Sequence record: OM386652.1
DNA from: Escherichia phage vB_EcoS_ESCO3
Strand: one strand, 5' to 3'
DNA: 59,956 nt
Numbering within the stretch: the stretch's first letter is position 1; every line of letters begins with the position of its first letter. Below, piece by piece: positions 8,862-59,956 of this stretch. The notes beneath the pieces are model-generated. The model did not search any database. It was not told the DNA's origin and saw nothing but the letters and a program-made list of their open reading frames with translations. The position numbers and the translations under genes were made by a program.

Positions 8862-9686
8862 TTACTCTGCAGATTTCTGAGACGGAATTTCTACGTTAGC
8901 GGCCGCCTGTGCAATATTAGCAGGTACTGGAACTGATACGCGACCAGTAATGCCCATGTATTTCTTCCAGCGAGCGTATTCCGCTTTGACGTTCGCTTCG
9001 TTCAGGCCTTTGTCCAGTGCAACCGGAAGAACGTAGCTGATCGGTGCAGTCTGGCCCAGCTCCAGTGTGACAGCGTCAAAGATATCCCATGCAGCACGGC
9101 ACAGAGTGCCAACACCAGGCTTACGAATACCATTCTGTTCCGGCTCTTTCTTAGCTTCACGTTCTGCCGCTTTACGAGCGCGCTCTTCGTCTTGCAGACG
9201 TTTCTTCTCAGCGCGTTCTGCGTCACGTTGCGCTTTTTCAGCGGCTTTAGTGGCTTCGCGGGCAGCGGATACACGACCTTTAACATCTTTCAAAGTGGAT
9301 TCAATACCAGAAACCAGATCTTCAGATGCTGTAACGGCAGTTTTCAGTTGATCGTTGTCTTTAACTTTACGTGCTGCCGCTTTAACAGCTTTCAGACCTT
9401 CTTTAGCGGTCTTCAGTTGAGCGGTAACTACACCTTCAACTGCTTTAACTTCGTCCAGCAACGAACCTTCGTTCAGGGTCGCGAACTGTTCTTTAACAGC
9501 GGACACAGCACCTTCGATTACATTGTAACCGGCAGTAGCTTCGTTCATTGCCGCGTCAACTTTAGCCTGCAATTCACGTGCTGCTTTTTCTTCAGCTTCA
9601 CGTTTTTTCTTTGCTTCAGCTTCTTTTGCTGCTTTCTTTGCTGCTTCTTCTGCTTCCAGTTGCTCTGGAGTTTTCTCTTTAGCCAT
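8862..9686 (-). CDS. hypothetical protein, Lys/Ala/Glu-rich coiled-coil
   Basis: 274 aa. Highly charged alpha-helical N-terminal two thirds, globular C-terminus. No catalytic motif recognised. Confidence 0.5.
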   Translation of the reverse strand: MAKEKTPEQLEAEEAAKKAAKEAEAKKKREAEEKAARELQAKVDAAMNEATAGYNVIEGAVSAVKEQFATLNEGSLLDEVKAVEGVVTAQLKTAKEGLKAVKAAARKVKDNDQLKTAVTASEDLVSGIESTLKDVKGRVSAAREATKAAEKAQRDAERAEKKRLQDEERARKAAEREAKKEPEQNGIRKPGVGTLCRAAWDIFDAVTLELGQTAPISYVLPVALDKGLNEANVKAEYARWKKYMGITGRVSVPVPANIAQAAANVEIPSQKSAE

Positions 9687-53954: not shown

Positions 53955-53992
53955 AAAAATAGGCGCTCTATCGAGCGCCTATAATTTATTTA
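53952..53992. terminator. bidirectional rho-independent terminator
   Basis: Stem AGGCGCTC / GAGCGCCT with loop TATC, flanked by an A run upstream and a T-rich stretch downstream. Sits between the convergent J-like gene and the antisense small gene. Confidence 0.65.
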
Positions 53993-54267
53993 CAACCTTC
54001 AGACCAACCAACACGGTTCATAGCCGGTGAGCAATCAGGTTTAACTTTTTTACCTTTCATCCACTCAGCTTTAGCTTTACCAGCGGTAGTGCCTTCGTAG
54101 ATGGAAGTCTGGTGCTCAATGTTGCTTACTCCACCAGTATGCCCGCCTAATGATGAACCACTACCAGGACCACCATTACCTGGGCCACCAGTACCACCGG
54201 AATGACCAGTTGCATAAGCAAAAGTAGCAGTCATAGAAAGAATAATGGCGCAGATTAAAGTCTTCAT
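53986..54267 (-). CDS. small secreted Gly-rich protein (candidate superinfection-exclusion/receptor-blocking factor)
   Basis: Start placed at the ATG at 54267. Signal peptide MKTLICAIILSMTATFAYA, Gly-rich mature region, C-terminal Cys pair. The only minus-strand gene in the rightward structural arm, directly after the host-specificity gene. Confidence 0.5.
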   Translation of the reverse strand: MKTLICAIILSMTATFAYATGHSGGTGGPGNGGPGSGSSLGGHTGGVSNIEHQTSIYEGTTAGKAKAEWMKGKKVKPDCSPAMNRVGWSEGCK

Positions 54268-54356
54268 TTCGAACTCCTTTATGTTTGTGTGTAACAACTA
54301 TATAGGGATATAATTTAAGATGTAAACCCCCCCGATCTTATATAAGGGCACAACTC

Positions 54357-56453
54357 ATGGCAATTCGTTTACAAGGTATTTTAGTTGATGGATTGAATAA
54401 TCCGTTAGTTAATACTACTGTCACACTAATTGCAAGAAGTAACACATTATTAGTGTTAGGTGGAAGTGAAGCTGTATTCCGCACAGATTCAACCGGACAT
54501 TATAATATACAGGTGAACTCCGGACATTATGTGGTTATCGTTGGCCCACAAGGTATCGAACCATATAAAGCTGGTGAGATTGTCCTTTATGCAGATAGTG
54601 CAGACGGGTCACTTAACGGTTATCTTGTTGATTGGGTAGAAGAAGAGCTTACACCGGATATCATCAAGCAGGTACAGGATTTAGTTGCAAGCTCCCAAGA
54701 GTACGCGTTACAAGCAGAACGTGCGGCGTCTTCGGCTAATGCAGATGCTACAGATGCTCGTAACAGCAAAGCGGCGGCCGCCTCATCGGCTTCATCTGCA
54801 TTGACTTATAAGAATGATGCAAAGAAGAGTGCGGATGCTGCTAAAACGTCACAGACTTCCGCTGCTGGTTCTGCAAATACTGCCACTCAAGCTGTGACCA
54901 CAATACAAGGTCTCAAGACTGATGTTGAGAAACTAAAGTCCGATACGCAGACCATTAAAAACAGTGCAGTCACTGAGACTACTAAATTAAAGGATGCTGC
55001 TGCCGCGTCTGCTACACAAGCGGCCAATAGCGCCACAGAAGCTGGTAAGCAGGCCACTAATGCTAGCACGAGCGCAACAAGCGCGAAAAACGACGCAGAC
55101 CGTGCAAAGACGGAAGCTGACCGTGCGGAAGCTGCTGCCAACAACGCACCAGAAATTCAGCCGTTACCAGATGTATGGGTTCCGTTAAATGATTCCCTCG
55201 ATATGATTACGGGATTCTCACCTAGCTATAAAAAGATTATAATCGGTGATGATGAAATAACGATGCCTGGCGATAAGGTTGTAAAGTTTAAACGCGCATC
55301 GAAAGCAACCTATATTAATAAATCTGGTGTGCTGACAGAGGCTGCCATTGACGAGCCACGATTTGAACGTGATGGCCTGCTTATTGAGGGGCAAAGAACA
55401 AACTACATGCTCAATTCGGAAAACCCTGCCAGTTGGGGGCGATCGTCAAATATGGATGTTCCCGAAACCGGGAAGGATAGTTTTGGTTTTACCTATGGAA
55501 AGTTTGTCTGTAACGATTCTCTGATTGGGCAAACCTCAGCCATTAATATGGCATCAATTGCTGCAACAAAGTCAGTTGATGTCTCAGGCGATAATAAATA
55601 CGTGACAACCTCATGTCGTTTTAAAACAGAACTGCAGGTAAGGTTGCGTATCCGGTTTGATAAATATGACGGTAGCGCAACAACTTTTCTTGGTGATGCG
55701 TATATTGATACACAAACGCTTGAAATTAATATGACAGGCGGCGCTGCCTCAAGGATTACAGCGAGAGTCAGAAAGGACGAAGCTACCGGATGGATTTTTG
55801 CAGAGGCAACAATTCAGGCAATTGATGGGGAGTTAAAAATAGGTTCTCAGATACAGTATTCTCCTAAGCAGGGCGGGGCAACCGTATCTGGTGACTATAT
55901 TTATCTGGCCACCCCACAAGTAGAAAATGGGCGTTGTGTATCATCTTTTATTATATCAGGAACGACGGCGGCGACCCGCGCAAGCGATATAGTTACAGTT
56001 CCCATTAAGAATAATCTTTATAATCTTCCTTTTACGGTTCTTTGTGAGGTACATAAGAACTGGTATAAAACGCCAAATGCAGCGCCGCGTGTTTTTGACA
56101 CCGGCGGTCATCAAACCGGAGCGGCAATTATTCTTGGATTCGGTTCTTCAGCAGATTACGACGGATTTCCTTATTGCGATATTGGAGGAGCTAACAGACG
56201 GGTAAACGAAAACGCATTGCTTGAAAAAATGGTTATGGGGATGCGTGTAAAGTCAGATCAGTCTACGTGCTCAGTAAGTAACGGGCGTATATCCAGCCAA
56301 ACAAAAACCACATGGTCCTGTATTCAGAACACCGCAATTATCCGTATTGGAGGCCAGACTACAGCCGGGTTACGTCATTTATTTGGTCATGTCAGGAATT
56401 TCAGAATATGGCACAAGGCATTGACTGATGCTCAGGTGGGGGAGTCAATCTAA
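54357..56453 (+). CDS. side tail fiber protein
   Basis: 698 aa. Conserved-looking tail-fiber N-terminus (MAIRLQGILVDGLNNP...), Ala/Ser/Thr-rich repeat region (...TDARNSKAAAASSASSALTYKNDAKKSADAAK...), divergent C-terminal domain. Confidence 0.6.
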   Translation: MAIRLQGILVDGLNNPLVNTTVTLIARSNTLLVLGGSEAVFRTDSTGHYNIQVNSGHYVVIVGPQGIEPYKAGEIVLYADSADGSLNGYLVDWVEEELTPDIIKQVQDLVASSQEYALQAERAASSANADATDARNSKAAAASSASSALTYKNDAKKSADAAKTSQTSAAGSANTATQAVTTIQGLKTDVEKLKSDTQTIKNSAVTETTKLKDAAAASATQAANSATEAGKQATNASTSATSAKNDADRAKTEADRAEAAANNAPEIQPLPDVWVPLNDSLDMITGFSPSYKKIIIGDDEITMPGDKVVKFKRASKATYINKSGVLTEAAIDEPRFERDGLLIEGQRTNYMLNSENPASWGRSSNMDVPETGKDSFGFTYGKFVCNDSLIGQTSAINMASIAATKSVDVSGDNKYVTTSCRFKTELQVRLRIRFDKYDGSATTFLGDAYIDTQTLEINMTGGAASRITARVRKDEATGWIFAEATIQAIDGELKIGSQIQYSPKQGGATVSGDYIYLATPQVENGRCVSSFIISGTTAATRASDIVTVPIKNNLYNLPFTVLCEVHKNWYKTPNAAPRVFDTGGHQTGAAIILGFGSSADYDGFPYCDIGGANRRVNENALLEKMVMGMRVKSDQSTCSVSNGRISSQTKTTWSCIQNTAIIRIGGQTTAGLRHLFGHVRNFRIWHKALTDAQVGESI

Positions 56454-56734
56454 TGAAAGATTTAACACTCAAATTTGCCGACAGGGCCGACTTTTCGGCC
56501 TTTATGGAGAGTACTGGCTATTATGATGACGAGTCGATGCAGGATGATATTCTTATTGACGTGATAGGTAACGTGTACAAAGAAACCGGAGAACTGAATG
56601 AAGATGGCGAACCGGTATGTGTTAAGGAAGACGGATATTTTGTAAACGTGCGCATCATTAATGATGTGAAAACACCGTCAATATTCGATGAATACGTGGT
56701 TGCTGTTGAGCATCAACTTCGTGGCTGGATGTGA
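56453..56734 (+). CDS. hypothetical protein (possible tail-fiber accessory)
   Basis: 93-aa acidic ORF coupled to the tail fiber genes. Confidence 0.4.
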   Translation: MKDLTLKFADRADFSAFMESTGYYDDESMQDDILIDVIGNVYKETGELNEDGEPVCVKEDGYFVNVRIINDVKTPSIFDEYVVAVEHQLRGWM

Positions 56735-56743
56735 GGAAGAATA

Positions 56744-57799
56744 ATGGCTACATCGACAGTAATTCCTGATGACATCAAAACGCTAAAATCCGATGTTAGT
56801 AAACTAAAAAACGATCAAGGAAGCTACGCAACAAAATCATATGTAGACAGCAAAGATGAAACCGTTGGTGACTGGTCTGCTTCATGGTATCAGCAGGTAT
56901 TGCCAACTAGCGGAGCTATATTTGGGAGAAAACTCCGCTCAACTCACAGGACGGCAGGTGTTGAGGATGCGTATTGCGAACTATACCTCAAAAAATGGAT
57001 AGACAGTCCAGGTAACGCAATGGCGCGCCTTAACCTGAACGATAACGGGACAAACATTTGCTGGGACTTTACCAACCTTTATGGCGGTACGATGATTTTT
57101 CCCGGTGACAGCGGATACCTCAAAATGGGTAACTGCCTTATGTCATACAGCAAGCGTGGAAGTAACGCGCTTATTAAATTTGATTACACCGACACATTAC
57201 AGATCAAATATGCTAATCATGGGTCAACCATGACATTAAACACACAGGGAACCGCTCACGCTGGCGTAACAACTAGACTATGGGGTAATTCTAGCCGTCC
57301 GGTTGTTTATGAAGTTGGCGTAGATGAGGCTCTGTATATGTTCTACGCACAGAAAACTACCAGCAATACCTACGAATTAACGGTTAACGGCGCGTGCAAT
57401 GCAAGTGCATTTAATCAAGGCTCTGACCGGGATCTGAAAGACAATATTCAGGTGATCGATAATGCAACCGACCGCATTCGTAAAATGAACGGCTATACAT
57501 ACACGCTTAAAGAAAACGGTATGCCTTACGCTGGTGTTATTGCACAAGAAACCCTGGAAGCCATCCCCGAAGCCGTAGGGGCTATGATGAAATATCAGGA
57601 CGGTGCAAGCGGATCGGAAGGTGGAGAAGGTGAACGTTATTACACAGTAGATTATTCTGGTATTACTGGCTTGCTTGTTCAGGTAGCCAGAGAGTCAGAT
57701 GACAGAATAACAAAACTAGAGTCCGAAGTCCAGGAACTCAAAGCTATTGTAAAAACTTTGTTAACAGATAGCGACACATCTTCAACTGACTTACCGTAA
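56744..57799 (+). CDS. tail fiber/tailspike protein with C-terminal intramolecular chaperone (S74-like) domain
   Basis: 351 aa. C-terminal SDRDLKDNIQVIDNATDRIRKMNGYTYTLKE...YSGITGLLVQVARE matches the auto-cleaving chaperone domain pattern of phage fibers. Confidence 0.55.
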   Translation: MATSTVIPDDIKTLKSDVSKLKNDQGSYATKSYVDSKDETVGDWSASWYQQVLPTSGAIFGRKLRSTHRTAGVEDAYCELYLKKWIDSPGNAMARLNLNDNGTNICWDFTNLYGGTMIFPGDSGYLKMGNCLMSYSKRGSNALIKFDYTDTLQIKYANHGSTMTLNTQGTAHAGVTTRLWGNSSRPVVYEVGVDEALYMFYAQKTTSNTYELTVNGACNASAFNQGSDRDLKDNIQVIDNATDRIRKMNGYTYTLKENGMPYAGVIAQETLEAIPEAVGAMMKYQDGASGSEGGEGERYYTVDYSGITGLLVQVARESDDRITKLESEVQELKAIVKTLLTDSDTSSTDLP

Positions 57800-57803
57800 G
57801 ATA

Positions 57804-57837
57804 AAAGCGCCTCTAGTATGGCGCTTTTATTTTTTAT
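57804..57837 (+). terminator. rho-independent terminator
   Basis: Stem AAAGCGCC / GGCGCTTT with an 8-nt loop, followed by a long T run. Confidence 0.7.
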
Positions 57838-57903
57838 AATCAATATTTACAAAACAATTTACGCTTTACCTTGCGATTCCCCACTTTTGCTATATGCTTG
57901 CTC

Positions 57904-57921
57904 TGTAACGTAAGAGTTACA
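57904..57921. promoter_or_regulatory. palindromic operator-like site TGTAAC-N6-GTTACA
   Basis: Perfect inverted repeat in the 150-bp intergenic region upstream of gene 57952..58662; same half-sites as the palindrome at 30178-30199. Confidence 0.35.
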
Positions 57922-57951
57922 TCAATTTAACAATCTAAATGGGGAATCCAT

Positions 57952-58662
57952 ATGTCTGACATGACTCTTATTCCGGGCGGTTTGGGTGGCGGTTTCGGTG
58001 GTGAAGCTGGCGCAGCGGCCGTTGGCGGTGGTATCGGTGGCTTAATCGGTTCGTGGATCGGAAATGGTTGGGGTGGCAATGTCGGTTGGGGTGGTCGCGG
58101 CGGTTGGGGTGGTGTCGGTGAAGTTCAGGCTTCCGTAGATACTAACGCAATTCTGCAAGCCATCAATAACGGCAACCTGCAAAACATCCAGGGTCAGAAC
58201 GGTACTAACCTGACTGTCGAACGTTCTTCGGCGTCCACCTTCAACGGCATTACTCAACAGAACACTCAGAACATGCTGGCTTCCGTTCAGGGCTTTGCTG
58301 GTCTGAACACTGAAATTCGCACTGGTACAGCGTCTGTCGTAGCTGCTGTCAATGCTGCGGATGTAAACGCGTTGAACCGTTCCTTCCAGGCTCAGTTAGC
58401 TGCTCAGGAATGTTGCTGCGAGACCAACCTGAACATCGAACGTCAAGCGAACGAAACCCGTGGCCTGATTCGTGATCAGTTTGCTCAGTCTCAAGCTGTT
58501 CTGATCTGTGATCTGAAATCTCAGTTGCAGGAAGCTCGCTTTGCGAACTCTCAGCTGCATCAGACCGCACAGCTTGATTGTAAGATCAATCAGGTTGCAC
58601 AGCTCGTTAACTTCAAGCTGCCAACTCCTCCGACTCCTCCGACCGGTTGCTGTGGTTGCTAA
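57952..58662 (+). CDS. Gly/Trp-rich N-terminal, Cys-rich C-terminal protein of unknown function
   Basis: 236 aa. N-terminus GGLGGGFGGEAGAAAVGGGIGG...GWGGNVGWGGRGGWGG, Q/N-rich middle, C-terminal ECCCE ... GCCGC. Own intergenic promoter region and a downstream hairpin. Confidence 0.5.
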   Translation: MSDMTLIPGGLGGGFGGEAGAAAVGGGIGGLIGSWIGNGWGGNVGWGGRGGWGGVGEVQASVDTNAILQAINNGNLQNIQGQNGTNLTVERSSASTFNGITQQNTQNMLASVQGFAGLNTEIRTGTASVVAAVNAADVNALNRSFQAQLAAQECCCETNLNIERQANETRGLIRDQFAQSQAVLICDLKSQLQEARFANSQLHQTAQLDCKINQVAQLVNFKLPTPPTPPTGCCGC

Positions 58663-58683
58663 GATCCTAAAGTGTGGTCAACT

Positions 58684-58707
58684 AAACGCCTCTCACGGGG
58701 CGTTTTT
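58684..58707 (+). terminator. candidate rho-independent terminator (weak)
   Basis: 7-bp stem AAACGCC / GGCGTTT with an 8-nt loop and a short T run. Confidence 0.4.
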
Positions 58708-58724
58708 AAAAAGAGGTCAGACAT

Positions 58725-59090
58725 ATGGGTCACATTAAATTAGCAACATTTGCGTTACCACATATCCGTCTTCCAATGATTGCTTTGCCGCATCTGGTTT
58801 ACAAGACGGGTGAGCACCATACAGAGGAGCATCACGAACATGATAAACTTCATGCTAGAGATCATGAATCTATGGCAGTTATGGCAGATGTGCATGAGCG
58901 GATGGAACAACCTCCGTCAACTTGGGCGGCGTACAGTAGCAAGTCCGGCGGCATGATGTCAATTGTCGAAATGGAGTATCGTGAACTGATGGAAAAGAAA
59001 GCTGAAGGTTCACATACTGGTGTAGAAAAAGAACTAACTGATCTTGCTGCCGCTTGTATTTGTGCGCTCAAGAAAATGAAAGCGAAGTAA
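58725..59090 (+). CDS. hypothetical His-rich protein, possible MazG-like NTP pyrophosphohydrolase
   Basis: 121 aa. N-terminal HHTEEHHEHDKLHARDHE; C-terminal EMEYRELMEK...EKELTDLAAACI resembles the EExxE...ExxD pattern of MazG-like proteins. Weak. Confidence 0.3.
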   Translation: MGHIKLATFALPHIRLPMIALPHLVYKTGEHHTEEHHEHDKLHARDHESMAVMADVHERMEQPPSTWAAYSSKSGGMMSIVEMEYRELMEKKAEGSHTGVEKELTDLAAACICALKKMKAK

Positions 59091-59106
59091 AAGATAGGAA
59101 GCCGAC

Positions 59107-59655
59107 ATGCAGAACATAAACAATGGTATGGGCGTTACTCAATTCAACGGTATGAAACCGAAAAGCTCCATCAGCGTTGGCGGCGTTGAATGGGCGTTAC
59201 GTCGGGACGCTACCGATTCAACGACTGCATTTCCGCACCAAAAGGTCAGCTGGCTAAATGCTGGTTGCGAACCTATGGCAGATGGTCGGGTTCATTATTG
59301 TTGGATAATGGGTGTGATACCACCAACGCCAGGTACTATCGAACGTCCAGTGAATGTGATGTATGTTGGCTTCCACCAGTTTAAGATCACAATAGCTCCG
59401 AACTCCATTAGCCAATCCGATCTTGATCGTATGCACGTATATGTGAGCGATAATTCTGACTTTGCAGGTGAATTCGTAAGTAAGTTCTTAGGTCTGGAAC
59501 CCGCGCAGCCTGTAGAATCCCGTGAGAGTATTAGCCCATGGCCACCAACGATAGATCAGAGCGTGTTACACGCGAATCCGCAAACTCCAGAACCTCAGGC
59601 ACAACCTCAACCGCAAACTGTGGTCAAGCCAGAGCAGAAAGGTGAAGCTAAATGA
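59107..59655 (+). CDS. hypothetical protein
   Basis: 182 aa with a Pro/Gln-rich C-terminus. Confidence 0.45.
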   Translation: MQNINNGMGVTQFNGMKPKSSISVGGVEWALRRDATDSTTAFPHQKVSWLNAGCEPMADGRVHYCWIMGVIPPTPGTIERPVNVMYVGFHQFKITIAPNSISQSDLDRMHVYVSDNSDFAGEFVSKFLGLEPAQPVESRESISPWPPTIDQSVLHANPQTPEPQAQPQPQTVVKPEQKGEAK

Positions 59656-59921
59656 CGAAGAACGAAGGTATTGATAAAGTAGTTCAGCAACTGGCAATAC
59701 GTGCCCATGTTGTAGTAGACGAAGGTCATTCCGAATTAGACATCCTAAAGTCCGCTTTCAATGACTTCAAATCCATGGGCTCTTTAACTGGTATTATGTC
59801 AGTAATGAGCTCAGGTAAATTAACTCAGCAACAAGTTGATGTTGCACAACGTATTGCTGTAAAGGTCTTGGCTGTGCTAGGCATCCAAGAATCAAATAAA
59901 AAACAAGAAAAAGAAGAATAA
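59652..59921 (+). CDS. hypothetical protein
   Basis: 89-aa ORF, translationally coupled to the previous gene. Confidence 0.45.
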   Translation: MTKNEGIDKVVQQLAIRAHVVVDEGHSELDILKSAFNDFKSMGSLTGIMSVMSSGKLTQQQVDVAQRIAVKVLAVLGIQESNKKQEKEE

Positions 59922-59956
59922 ACAGAGGCAACGTGTGGCATTTTGGGGCATTTTAT

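Follow-up and report, generated by a model that had tools for sequence, protein, structure and literature searches.

A putative glycine-zipper membrane protein with a conserved cysteine cluster leads an apparently mobile four-gene cassette in Escherichia phage vB_EcoS_ESCO3 and its distant relatives

The 59,956-nucleotide sequence record OM386652.1 of Escherichia phage vB_EcoS_ESCO3, the whole of which is called the window here, is a near-complete Nonagvirus (Queuovirinae) genome with about 99% identity to Enterobacteria phage JenP2. Near its end, behind the tail-fibre genes, lies an open reading frame (ORF) for a 236-residue protein, termed g1, which leads a conserved gene set, g1-g2-g3-g4. 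The g1 protein combines a Gly-rich N-terminal region with a near-invariant cysteine cluster, and our analysis points to a possible membrane-anchored accessory protein of the kind known as a moron. The features of the locus are the following.

57804-57835, plus strand: intrinsic terminator of the upstream tail-fibre gene (GCGCC/GGCGC stem, T-run), read from the sequence
57871-57898, plus strand: predicted sigma-70-like promoter, TTGCGA (57871-57876), 16-nt spacer and TATGCT (57893-57898), read from the sequence
57904-57921, plus strand: inverted repeat TGTAAC-GTAAGA-GTTACA, from the sequence, its uniqueness in the window and comparative loci
57941-57945, plus strand: Shine-Dalgarno-like GGGGA, 6 nt 5' of the ATG, read from the sequence
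57952-58662, plus strand: g1 coding sequence, 236 residues (phrog_9288, function unknown), from the ORF list, profile match and alignment
57952-58005, plus strand: conserved acidic N-terminal tail of g1, residues 1-18 (MSDMTLIP...), free of Lys and Arg, from alignments A1 and A2
58006-58092, plus strand: glycine-zipper, transmembrane (TM)-like segment of g1, residues 19-47, from the sequence pattern and the TM helix at the aligned site in distant homologs
58186-58617, plus strand: predicted single long α-helix of g1, residues 79-222, rich in Gln, Asn and Thr, from AlphaFold2
58411-58419, plus strand: near-invariant CCC motif of g1, residues 154-156 (TGT TGC TGC), from alignments A1 and A2
58621-58659, plus strand: C-terminal PTPPTPPTGCCGC tail of g1, from alignments A1 and A2
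58684-58707, plus strand: intrinsic terminator or attenuator between g1 and g2 (CGCC/GGCG stem, TTTTT), read from the sequence
58725-59090, plus strand: g2, 121 residues (phrog_9157), a His-rich tract and then a conserved ExxE...ELxD helical domain, from a profile match and alignment
59107-59655, plus strand: g3, 182 residues (phrog_8329), a β-sheet domain with a disordered Pro/Gln tail, fold unmatched
59652-59921, plus strand: g4, 89 residues (phrog_7239), small, function unknown, the last gene of the cassette, from a profile match and synteny

g1 is a genuine gene and not a chance ORF because it matches phrog_9288 from end to end (E=5e-129; residues 1-235 on positions 1-234 of the 234-position profile), has homologs in 165 clusters (52-97% identity) and keeps its key motifs invariant in the alignment. 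Searches with tblastn placed g1 in 190 phage records, g3 occurs in 139, and a profile search of the full library recovered full-length relatives of g1 (200-290 residues) with as little as about 25% identity. Over 926 bases around the locus the window is 99.2% identical to JenP2, where the counterpart gene, AKA60979, is annotated as a hypothetical protein. An initial annotation, made from the sequence alone, had listed the ORF at 57952-58662, its GWGG repeats, the clusters ECCCE and GCCGC and the palindrome TGTAAC-N6-GTTACA; all of these are present, and the spacer between the stop codon of the upstream fibre gene at 57799 and the g1 ATG measures 152 bp. A Pro-rich minus-strand ORF of 50 residues (57927-58079) was dismissed as the mirror image of the g1 Gly codons.

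Members of the family begin with a short, acidic N-terminus of the form M-x-[DE]-M-x-L-x-P, which is followed by the zipper GAxxGSWFGNGxGGWG, a conserved Arg and a helical region that varies in length and contains QGF[AS]GLN repeats. After these come the near-invariant CCC, the motifs EGxATRxLI and LCDAKxKIxxLE, and a Thr/Pro/Ala tail. In g1 itself GWGG occurs three times (residues 39, 45 and 51), Gln and Asn make up 19% of the residues, and Cys residues are found at positions 154-156 (ECCCE), 186, 210 and 233/234/236 (GCCGC). The emphasis placed earlier on two Cys clusters holds for the first: CCC is invariant in A1, conserved to 90% or more in A2, the distant alignment, and doubled in the gut-phage branch. 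GCCGC, by contrast, is confined to close relatives and is no feature of the family; it is the Pro/Thr part of the C-terminal tail that is widely kept.

The N-terminal region had been described as almost pure Gly/Ala. It is indeed Gly-rich, but residues 1-58 are only 45% Gly and 52% Gly plus Ala, and the remainder consists of Ile, Val, Leu, Trp and Phe arranged in a period-4 stripe. Small residues recur at every fourth position (G9, G13, G17, A21, G25, G29, G33, G37, G41 and G45) and are flanked by a hydrophobic stripe comprised of V24, I28, I32, I36, W40 and V44. The zipper segment, residues 19-47, overlaps the first GWGG repeats, and Arg49 comes after it. Glycine-zipper membrane proteins are marked by (G/A/S)xxxGxxxG repeats in a hydrophobic stretch of helix length; g1 has this hallmark, and its Gly-rich part is predicted to form an ordered glycine-zipper helix, not random low complexity. 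In the gut-phage branch and in the homolog P0162, a classical hydrophobic TM helix occupies the aligned position (WWIWIILIAFLF; GLIGILLIAALF), with Kyte-Doolittle 19-residue means of 1.6-1.8. Of the Gly-rich translocation or membrane-interacting domain proposed initially, the membrane or envelope reading remains the best supported by the pattern, in the form of a zipper TM-like helix; a disordered translocation domain of the colicin type does not fit.

The charges around the segment are distributed unevenly. In the N-terminal tails of 33 homologs, Asp/Glu number 62 and Lys/Arg 12, and behind the zipper there is a conserved Arg. Read with the positive-inside rule, the acidic tail together with this Arg favors an N-out/C-in arrangement. 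Distant homologs of g1 (L014:6914-7720, L017:150-962, L095:5803-6462 and P0176) carry (Gly-Cys)n runs, such as GCGCGCG and NCGCGCGCG, directly after the membrane-anchor segment. Such juxtamembrane runs would be easier to reconcile with a reducing compartment. In the AlphaFold2 prediction of g1, residues 1-63 are disordered and residues 79-222 form one helix with a predicted local distance difference test score (pLDDT) of about 55-74 there; as modelled, this helix is probably a coiled-coil stalk. Fold matching with this model is meaningless, as it consists of a single low-confidence helix.

Upstream of g1 are genes for a 698-residue lateral tail fibre, a 93-residue ORF product and a 351-residue fibre protein, the last of which ends in a Peptidase_S74 intramolecular chaperone domain. 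The terminator at 57804-57835 forms the upstream edge of the g1 unit, and the annotation of phage HdK1 likewise places a terminator at the corresponding site; that of Sasha has one at the place equivalent to 58684-58707. A consensus promoter/terminator scan missed both the promoter and the terminators of g1. The first terminator was missed because of the loop and tail rules of the scan, and the predicted promoter matches 8 of 12 consensus positions, under the cut-off of the tool. Its -10 hexamer and the 6-7 nt gap to the inverted repeat are conserved in six other lineages from four phage groups, among them SE1, CAjan, Sasha, JakobBernoulli and an eiAU-like locus, with TATGCT, TATACT, CATACT and TATTCT as the hexamer variants at g1 loci. 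From this conserved geometry the transcript is predicted to start at G57905, the first base of GTAAC-N6-GTTAC.

TGTAAC-N6-GTTACA has one match in the window and at least one in 20 of 100 shuffles, so that it is weak within the window alone. The comparative loci rescue the repeat because GTAAC-N6-GTTAC, in the eight of 98 loci that have it, occurs once per locus, always directly upstream of g1 and nowhere else. The spacing stays at N6 throughout, and only JakobBernoulli departs from the arm sequences, with GTTGC. Minimum-free-energy folds of the predicted 5' untranslated regions place the repeat in a 5'-terminal hairpin (z-scores -1 to -3). An RNA stem-loop is favored by the G·U compatibility of the JakobBernoulli variant and by unrelated hairpins at the same place in more distant loci. 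Sequence-specific recognition, as an operator or an RNA-binding site, is favored by the invariance of the five core pairs and of the N6 spacing while the loop varies, and by the lack of covariation, a test that is uninformative here because the arms do not vary. We consider a 5' mRNA stem-loop about an even bet, an operator a credible but somewhat less probable function, and a function as neither of the two doubtful. Thus, the promoter region and operator-like palindrome of the initial annotation persist as a conserved promoter-like region and a conserved repeat, with the proviso that the repeat may act in the mRNA instead. As a lead only, TGTAAC-N6-GTTACA resembles the E. coli TyrR box, TGTAAA-N6-TTTACA. 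Taken together, the predicted promoter-like region, the conserved repeat and the predicted flanking terminators suggest that g1 is a separate transcription unit. A conserved upstream sequence, ATTTACAAAA, was rejected as a repeated phage promoter motif (9 matches, 10 expected). On the minus strand of the intergenic region (57798-57873), Rfam returned sub-threshold matches to OrzO-P (28 bits, where the gathering score is 60), ohsC, STnc40 and sraL; these matches to type I antitoxins and small RNAs most likely reflect the bidirectional terminator hairpin.

Codon use sets g1 apart from most of the genome. With Fop taken as the use of E. coli-optimal codons, g1 scores 0.77, second of 80 ORFs (mean 0.51, standard deviation 0.09), and 0.73 when Gly codons are left out. 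Lower values are found for the major capsid protein (0.70), the single-stranded DNA-binding protein SSB (0.70), a tail protein of phrog_290 (0.62) and the scaffold (0.60). G+C content, too, peaks locally at g1 (0.52, against 0.39-0.47 in the flanks). Judged by its codons, g1 is probably among the most strongly expressed genes of its phages. The top Fop of the genome, 0.80, belongs to a 274-residue ORF on the minus strand at 8862-9686 (phrog_11298, unknown function), whose product is probably another very abundant uncharacterised protein.

Codon use like that of major capsid and tail proteins would also suit a virion component. In this alternative, g1 would be a virion-associated fibrous protein, such as a whisker, a head or tail fibre or a decoration protein, built as a coiled-coil oligomer whose chains are cross-linked by disulfides at CCC and at the C-terminal GCC, much like a collagen-type cystine knot, and which is attached to the particle by its Gly-rich end. 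In several phage types g1 closes a late structural operon, which, like the long predicted helix and the Pro-rich tail followed by Cys, is consistent with this alternative. We nevertheless regard it as quite unlikely. Phages with nonsense, deletion and remnant alleles are viable, the position of the cassette varies, g1 has its own predicted promoter and terminator, the TM segment of distant homologs is strongly hydrophobic, the C-terminal Cys residues are not conserved, and g1 is co-inherited with g2-g4, which do not look structural. The papers on phages 9g, eiAU and TLS report no virion data for the g1 protein.

Natural alleles demonstrate what becomes of phages in which g1 is damaged. In the BASEL phage JakobBernoulli (Bas07; L004:5743-6447), an in-frame TAA replaces the codon for g1 Gln80 (…LQTL*GQNSTN…), as a result of which the gene is annotated as two, bas07_0035/0034, one of them called a 'putative sugar-binding protein'. 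In KurtStettler (Bas22; L003:4999-6531, bas22_0024), an in-frame deletion joins the S74 domain of the fibre (…LLVQVCRE) to g1 at about residue 19 (AGAAGIGG…), so that terminator, promoter and inverted repeat are lost together with the conserved g1 N-terminus. P0122, a protein of 223 residues from 11 contigs (the longest 61 kb), is a g1/g3 chimera: one part corresponds to positions 42-165 of the g1 profile, and another shares 97% identity with g3 across 58% of g3; its composition indicates a deletion of the g1 C-terminus, g2 and the start of g3. Only g3 fragments remain in Seurat and WildeMaa, and in TLS the ssb, lateral fibre and primase genes are numbered consecutively, leaving no room for the cassette. 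As the phages with nonsense, deletion or remnant alleles all plate, g1 is an accessory gene, and these alleles show that it is dispensable in the laboratory. In Salmonella phage vaffelhjerte (L006:5674-6330) and other Epseptimavirus records, which are T5-like, a partial and partly unannotated g1 homolog (about 41-52% identity over query residues 89-201) follows the tail-fibre gene; being partial and without g2-g4, it is probably a decaying remnant.

The same alleles bear on the label 'putative lateral tail fiber chaperone', which is attached to the homologs in KurtStettler and PJ16 and is in keeping with the location of g1 directly 3' of lateral tail-fibre genes in many phages. The label was traced to the 510-residue fusion ORF created by the KurtStettler deletion and was rejected, because that ORF contains the fibre Peptidase_S74 domain and the label does not derive from g1. 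Moreover, the upstream fibres carry chaperones of their own (S74 here, Caudo_TAP in HdK1), neither Caudo_TAP (PF02413) nor Peptidase_S74 (PF13884) is found in g1 at a Pfam E-value of 10 or below, Sasha, PY100 and the gut phages have the cassette at a distance from their fibre genes, and JakobBernoulli plates despite its nonsense allele. Nor do g1 and the fibres co-vary: three fibre-locus proteins are just 66%, 43% and 45% identical to those of JenP2, whereas the cassette DNA is 99% identical, as is g1. That g1 is a fibre chaperone is therefore, in our view, barely credible.

That g1 heads a conserved four-gene set escaped the initial annotation. The gene order of the cassette, in which g1 always comes first and is followed by g2 and/or g3 and usually also by g4, is found in JenP2, HdK1 and KurtStettler (Queuovirinae), in JakobBernoulli (Drexlerviridae), in Sasha (9NA-like), PY100 (ORF29-32) and eiAU, in the IMG/VR loci L011-L021 and in three loci from alphaproteobacterial metagenome-assembled genomes, and it persists down to about 30% g1 identity. 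The carriers include siphoviruses, myoviruses and podovirus-like contigs; a g1 relative occurs in only three genomes of bacterial species. The surroundings of the cassette differ from one group to the next. In Queuovirinae, Drexlerviridae, eiAU-like phages and one myovirus it is located 3' of lateral tail-fibre genes; in Sasha it lies between terL and portal and adjoins an HNH homing endonuclease; in PY100 it is found between terL and dam/ssb, surrounded by genes of the opposite strand; in podovirus-like contigs it comes after genes for large virion proteins, and in gut phages the g1 homolog is placed between the minor head protein and the scaffold. The cassette appears to have moved horizontally between unrelated phages. 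The endonuclease of Sasha (gp06, L005:3584-5134, minus strand; phrog_559, E=2e-123) is a divergent neighbor of the cassette, and suggests one route of mobilisation.

The partner genes offer few clues of their own. In g2, E84 and E87 are invariant, ELxD is mostly kept and a CxC is present; a profile search gave a weak match to PDB 2P06 (E=0.018) and no Pfam match, and a BASEL homolog is annotated as a 'putative pyrophosphatase'. g2 may be weakly MazG-like, MazG-type proteins being all-α NTP pyrophosphatases with metal-binding ExxE ... ExxD helices. Its His-rich tract, HHTEEHHEHDKLH, which reads HHHHHYHHGHH in Sasha, stands ahead of a two-helix domain. None of g2, g3 and g4 has a signal peptide. 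The Cys clusters of g1, which the initial annotation took for possible metal-binding motifs, recur here in a wider context, since the His tract and CxC of g2 and the conserved Cys and His of g3 suggest a possible metal-binding theme of the cassette.

Database searches with g1 returned no Pfam match at E<=10, including to any Pfam Gly-zipper family, no match in NCBIfam or in a PDB profile search, and none in the viral structure library BFVD; g1-g4 matched no PADLOC family at E<=1. We found no paper that characterises g1 or its partners, which have the database status of hypothetical proteins only. The earlier statement that g1 resembles no standard structural or lysis protein agrees with these profile and structure searches, in which no known structure or family was matched. 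The suggestion of a toxin-like factor fared worse, since g1 has no toxin domain. A related alternative is a colicin- or microcin-like envelope-active factor, released at lysis and acting on neighboring cells, with the Gly-rich N-terminus serving translocation or insertion. A Gly-rich N-terminus followed by a long helix resembles the colicin translocation and receptor-binding domains, Gly-rich hydrophobic stretches are reminiscent of class II microcins, and the apparent high expression of g1 would suit such a role. Yet no cytotoxic domain was found in g1-g4, the neighbors of g1 are g2-g4 and include no immunity or lysis gene, and no TolB/TonB box was recognised. Judged by eye, the 11-residue N-terminus misfits the double-glycine leader consensus and no exporter is encoded, and the hydrophobic TM helix of the homologs would trap the protein in the membrane of its producer. 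A factor of this type is very unlikely.

Against this background, we propose that g1 is an abundant single-pass inner-membrane accessory (moron) protein with a conditional, competition-related role at the membrane of the infected cell, a reading that we put at roughly fifty-fifty. In this model, g1 would be transcribed from its own sigma-70-type promoter, the transcript would begin in the conserved inverted repeat, and a terminator would stand on either side of the gene. The short acidic N-terminal tail would lie outside the membrane, and the glycine-zipper helix (about residues 19-47) would span the inner membrane and probably drive self-association. The helical, probably coiled-coil stalk of about 140 residues, with its CCC/Cys cluster, would project on the cytoplasmic side, probably where the signal-less partners g2-g4 are made, and g1 with g2-g4 would constitute a horizontally moved accessory cassette of the moron type. 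As candidate roles, g1 may exclude other phages, counter a host defence linked to the membrane or tune lysis. These roles are proposed by analogy with HK97 gp15, T4 rII/rI and similar proteins and would be conditional. The motifs, homology, synteny, natural knock-outs and codon bias are observed; membrane insertion, topology, oligomerisation and the role in the cell are inferred. A core lysis role is unlikely, since the related Seuratvirus KurtStettler (Queuovirinae) encodes a complete set of endolysin, holin, i-spanin and o-spanin elsewhere in its genome and g1 has no spanin homology. The idea of a decoy is unsupported, as g1 resembles neither the tape measure nor the tail-tip proteins of its own phage.

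Several observations weigh against this proposal. The g1 segment is itself moderately hydrophobic, with a Kyte-Doolittle 19-residue mean of 1.25, and the protein could therefore be soluble or peripherally bound. The charge bias is the sole basis of the predicted topology. The AlphaFold2 model is of low confidence overall (pLDDT 54.7, predicted template modelling score 0.20), and Fourier analysis of g1 hydrophobicity gave no clean heptad signal. Integral membrane proteins are not usually expressed at very high levels, and in the gut-phage branch the genes 3' of the g1 homolog are not detectably g2-g4. Finally, g1 has no similarity to known exclusion, holin, spanin or defence-related proteins, so that its physiological role is drawn from analogy only.

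The first of these points, along with the unstructured residues 1-63 of the AlphaFold2 model, would be accommodated by a soluble, abundant cytoplasmic protein, in which a disordered Gly/Trp region is joined to a coiled coil with metal-binding Cys, or which serves as a condensate or scaffold for g2-g4. The Cys/His theme over g1, g2 and g3 and the Gln+Asn content of g1 are in line with this possibility. It is at odds with the classical TM helix at the aligned segment of distant homologs, with the strict period-4 Gly stripe and its accompanying hydrophobic stripe, which are a signature of helix packing, and with the conserved charge asymmetry around the segment, and we judge it unlikely. A broader option, which we entertain tentatively, is that g1-g4 make up an undescribed self-contained mobile system under GTAAC-N6-GTTAC control. 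Here g1 would be a highly expressed glycine-zipper membrane scaffold, and its cytoplasmic Cys-rich coiled coil would work with g2, as a His-rich MazG-like enzyme, and with g3 and g4, whose folds are unmatched, in counter-defence, exclusion or a metal/thiol process at the inner membrane.

Two further features of the region lie outside the cassette. A mosaic junction falls at the fibre terminator, between about 54357-57799 and 57800-59956 of the window. On the minus strand at 53986-54297, with the J-like tail-tip gene on one side and the lateral fibre on the other, a 103-residue ORF (phrog_2243, unknown function) has a signal-peptide-like N-terminal segment, a Gly-rich middle (GHSGGTGGPGNGGPGSGSSLGGHTGG) and a Fop of 0.67, sixth of 80. 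Its product may be exported and act in exclusion or in the masking of receptors.

The cassette is widespread, occurring in Queuovirinae, Drexlerviridae, 9NA-like, eiAU-like and PY100-like phages, as remnants in T5-like phages, and in gut and alphaproteobacterial phages, and for none of its four proteins is a function known or a fold recognisable. The BASEL collection holds natural loss-of-function alleles (the Bas07 nonsense allele and the Bas22 fusion) together with intact relatives, which makes the role of g1 directly testable. Should the cassette prove to be an exclusion, counter-defence or lysis-timing module, this would explain a conserved 'dark' block that ends the late operon of many therapeutic-candidate coliphages and of Salmonella phages, and g1 would represent a new type of glycine-zipper membrane effector. 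Should g1 be merely a dispensable abundant protein, its site would be a candidate for payload insertion in phage engineering.

Several known systems invite comparison with g1. Some resemblance is seen to proteins of lysis. Like the i-spanin Rz of lambda and the T4-type holin T and antiholin RI, g1 would have an N-terminal TM helix, a large helical C-terminal domain and conserved Cys, and its Pro-rich end recalls the Rz partner Rz1. A spanin was rejected, as hhalign gave g1 a probability of 0.1-2% against the KurtStettler i-spanin and lambda Rz; unlike spanins, g1 has a charge bias that predicts the opposite topology and lies outside the lysis cassette, and no lipobox ORF that could encode an o-spanin partner was found near it. 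As in the translocation and receptor-binding domains of colicins, a Gly-rich N-terminus precedes a long helical region, but the Gly part of g1 is predicted to be an ordered period-4 zipper with hydrophobic residues and not a polar disordered domain.

Glycine-zipper membrane helices with (G/A/S)xxxGxxxG are found in the second transmembrane domain (TMD2) of pinholin S21-68, in VacA, in CdzC/D and in the type VI secretion system effector Tse4. g1 shares with them a ten-step period-4 stripe beside a hydrophobic stripe, which is the signature of a packed, oligomerising and often pore-lining TM helix; unlike them, it joins this segment to a 140-residue helix that bears Cys clusters. The T4 proteins rIIA and rIIB are abundant and membrane-associated, non-essential on ordinary laboratory hosts, easily lost when propagated in the laboratory, and needed only against particular host or prophage systems. 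With these g1 would share an analogy without homology, being far smaller and of a different architecture.

A further parallel is with morons, of which HK97 gp15 is reportedly one that acts in superinfection exclusion. As is typical of phage morons, g1 forms a self-contained unit with a predicted promoter and terminator at an edge of the late structural gene block, is kept by some relatives and missing from others, has a composition unlike that of its neighbors, is dispensable and encodes a small, predicted membrane-anchored product. The defining traits of a moron, its own promoter and terminator between modules, variable presence and deviant composition, are thus found in g1 as predicted from sequence. 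Unlike the known morons, to which it has no sequence similarity, g1 resides in virulent phages and is not a gene expressed from a prophage, and it leads a four-gene cassette. The kind is a known one, a late-operon moron with a putative membrane protein, of which the four-gene cassette, the glycine-zipper/CCC protein and the conserved leader element would make an undescribed variant.

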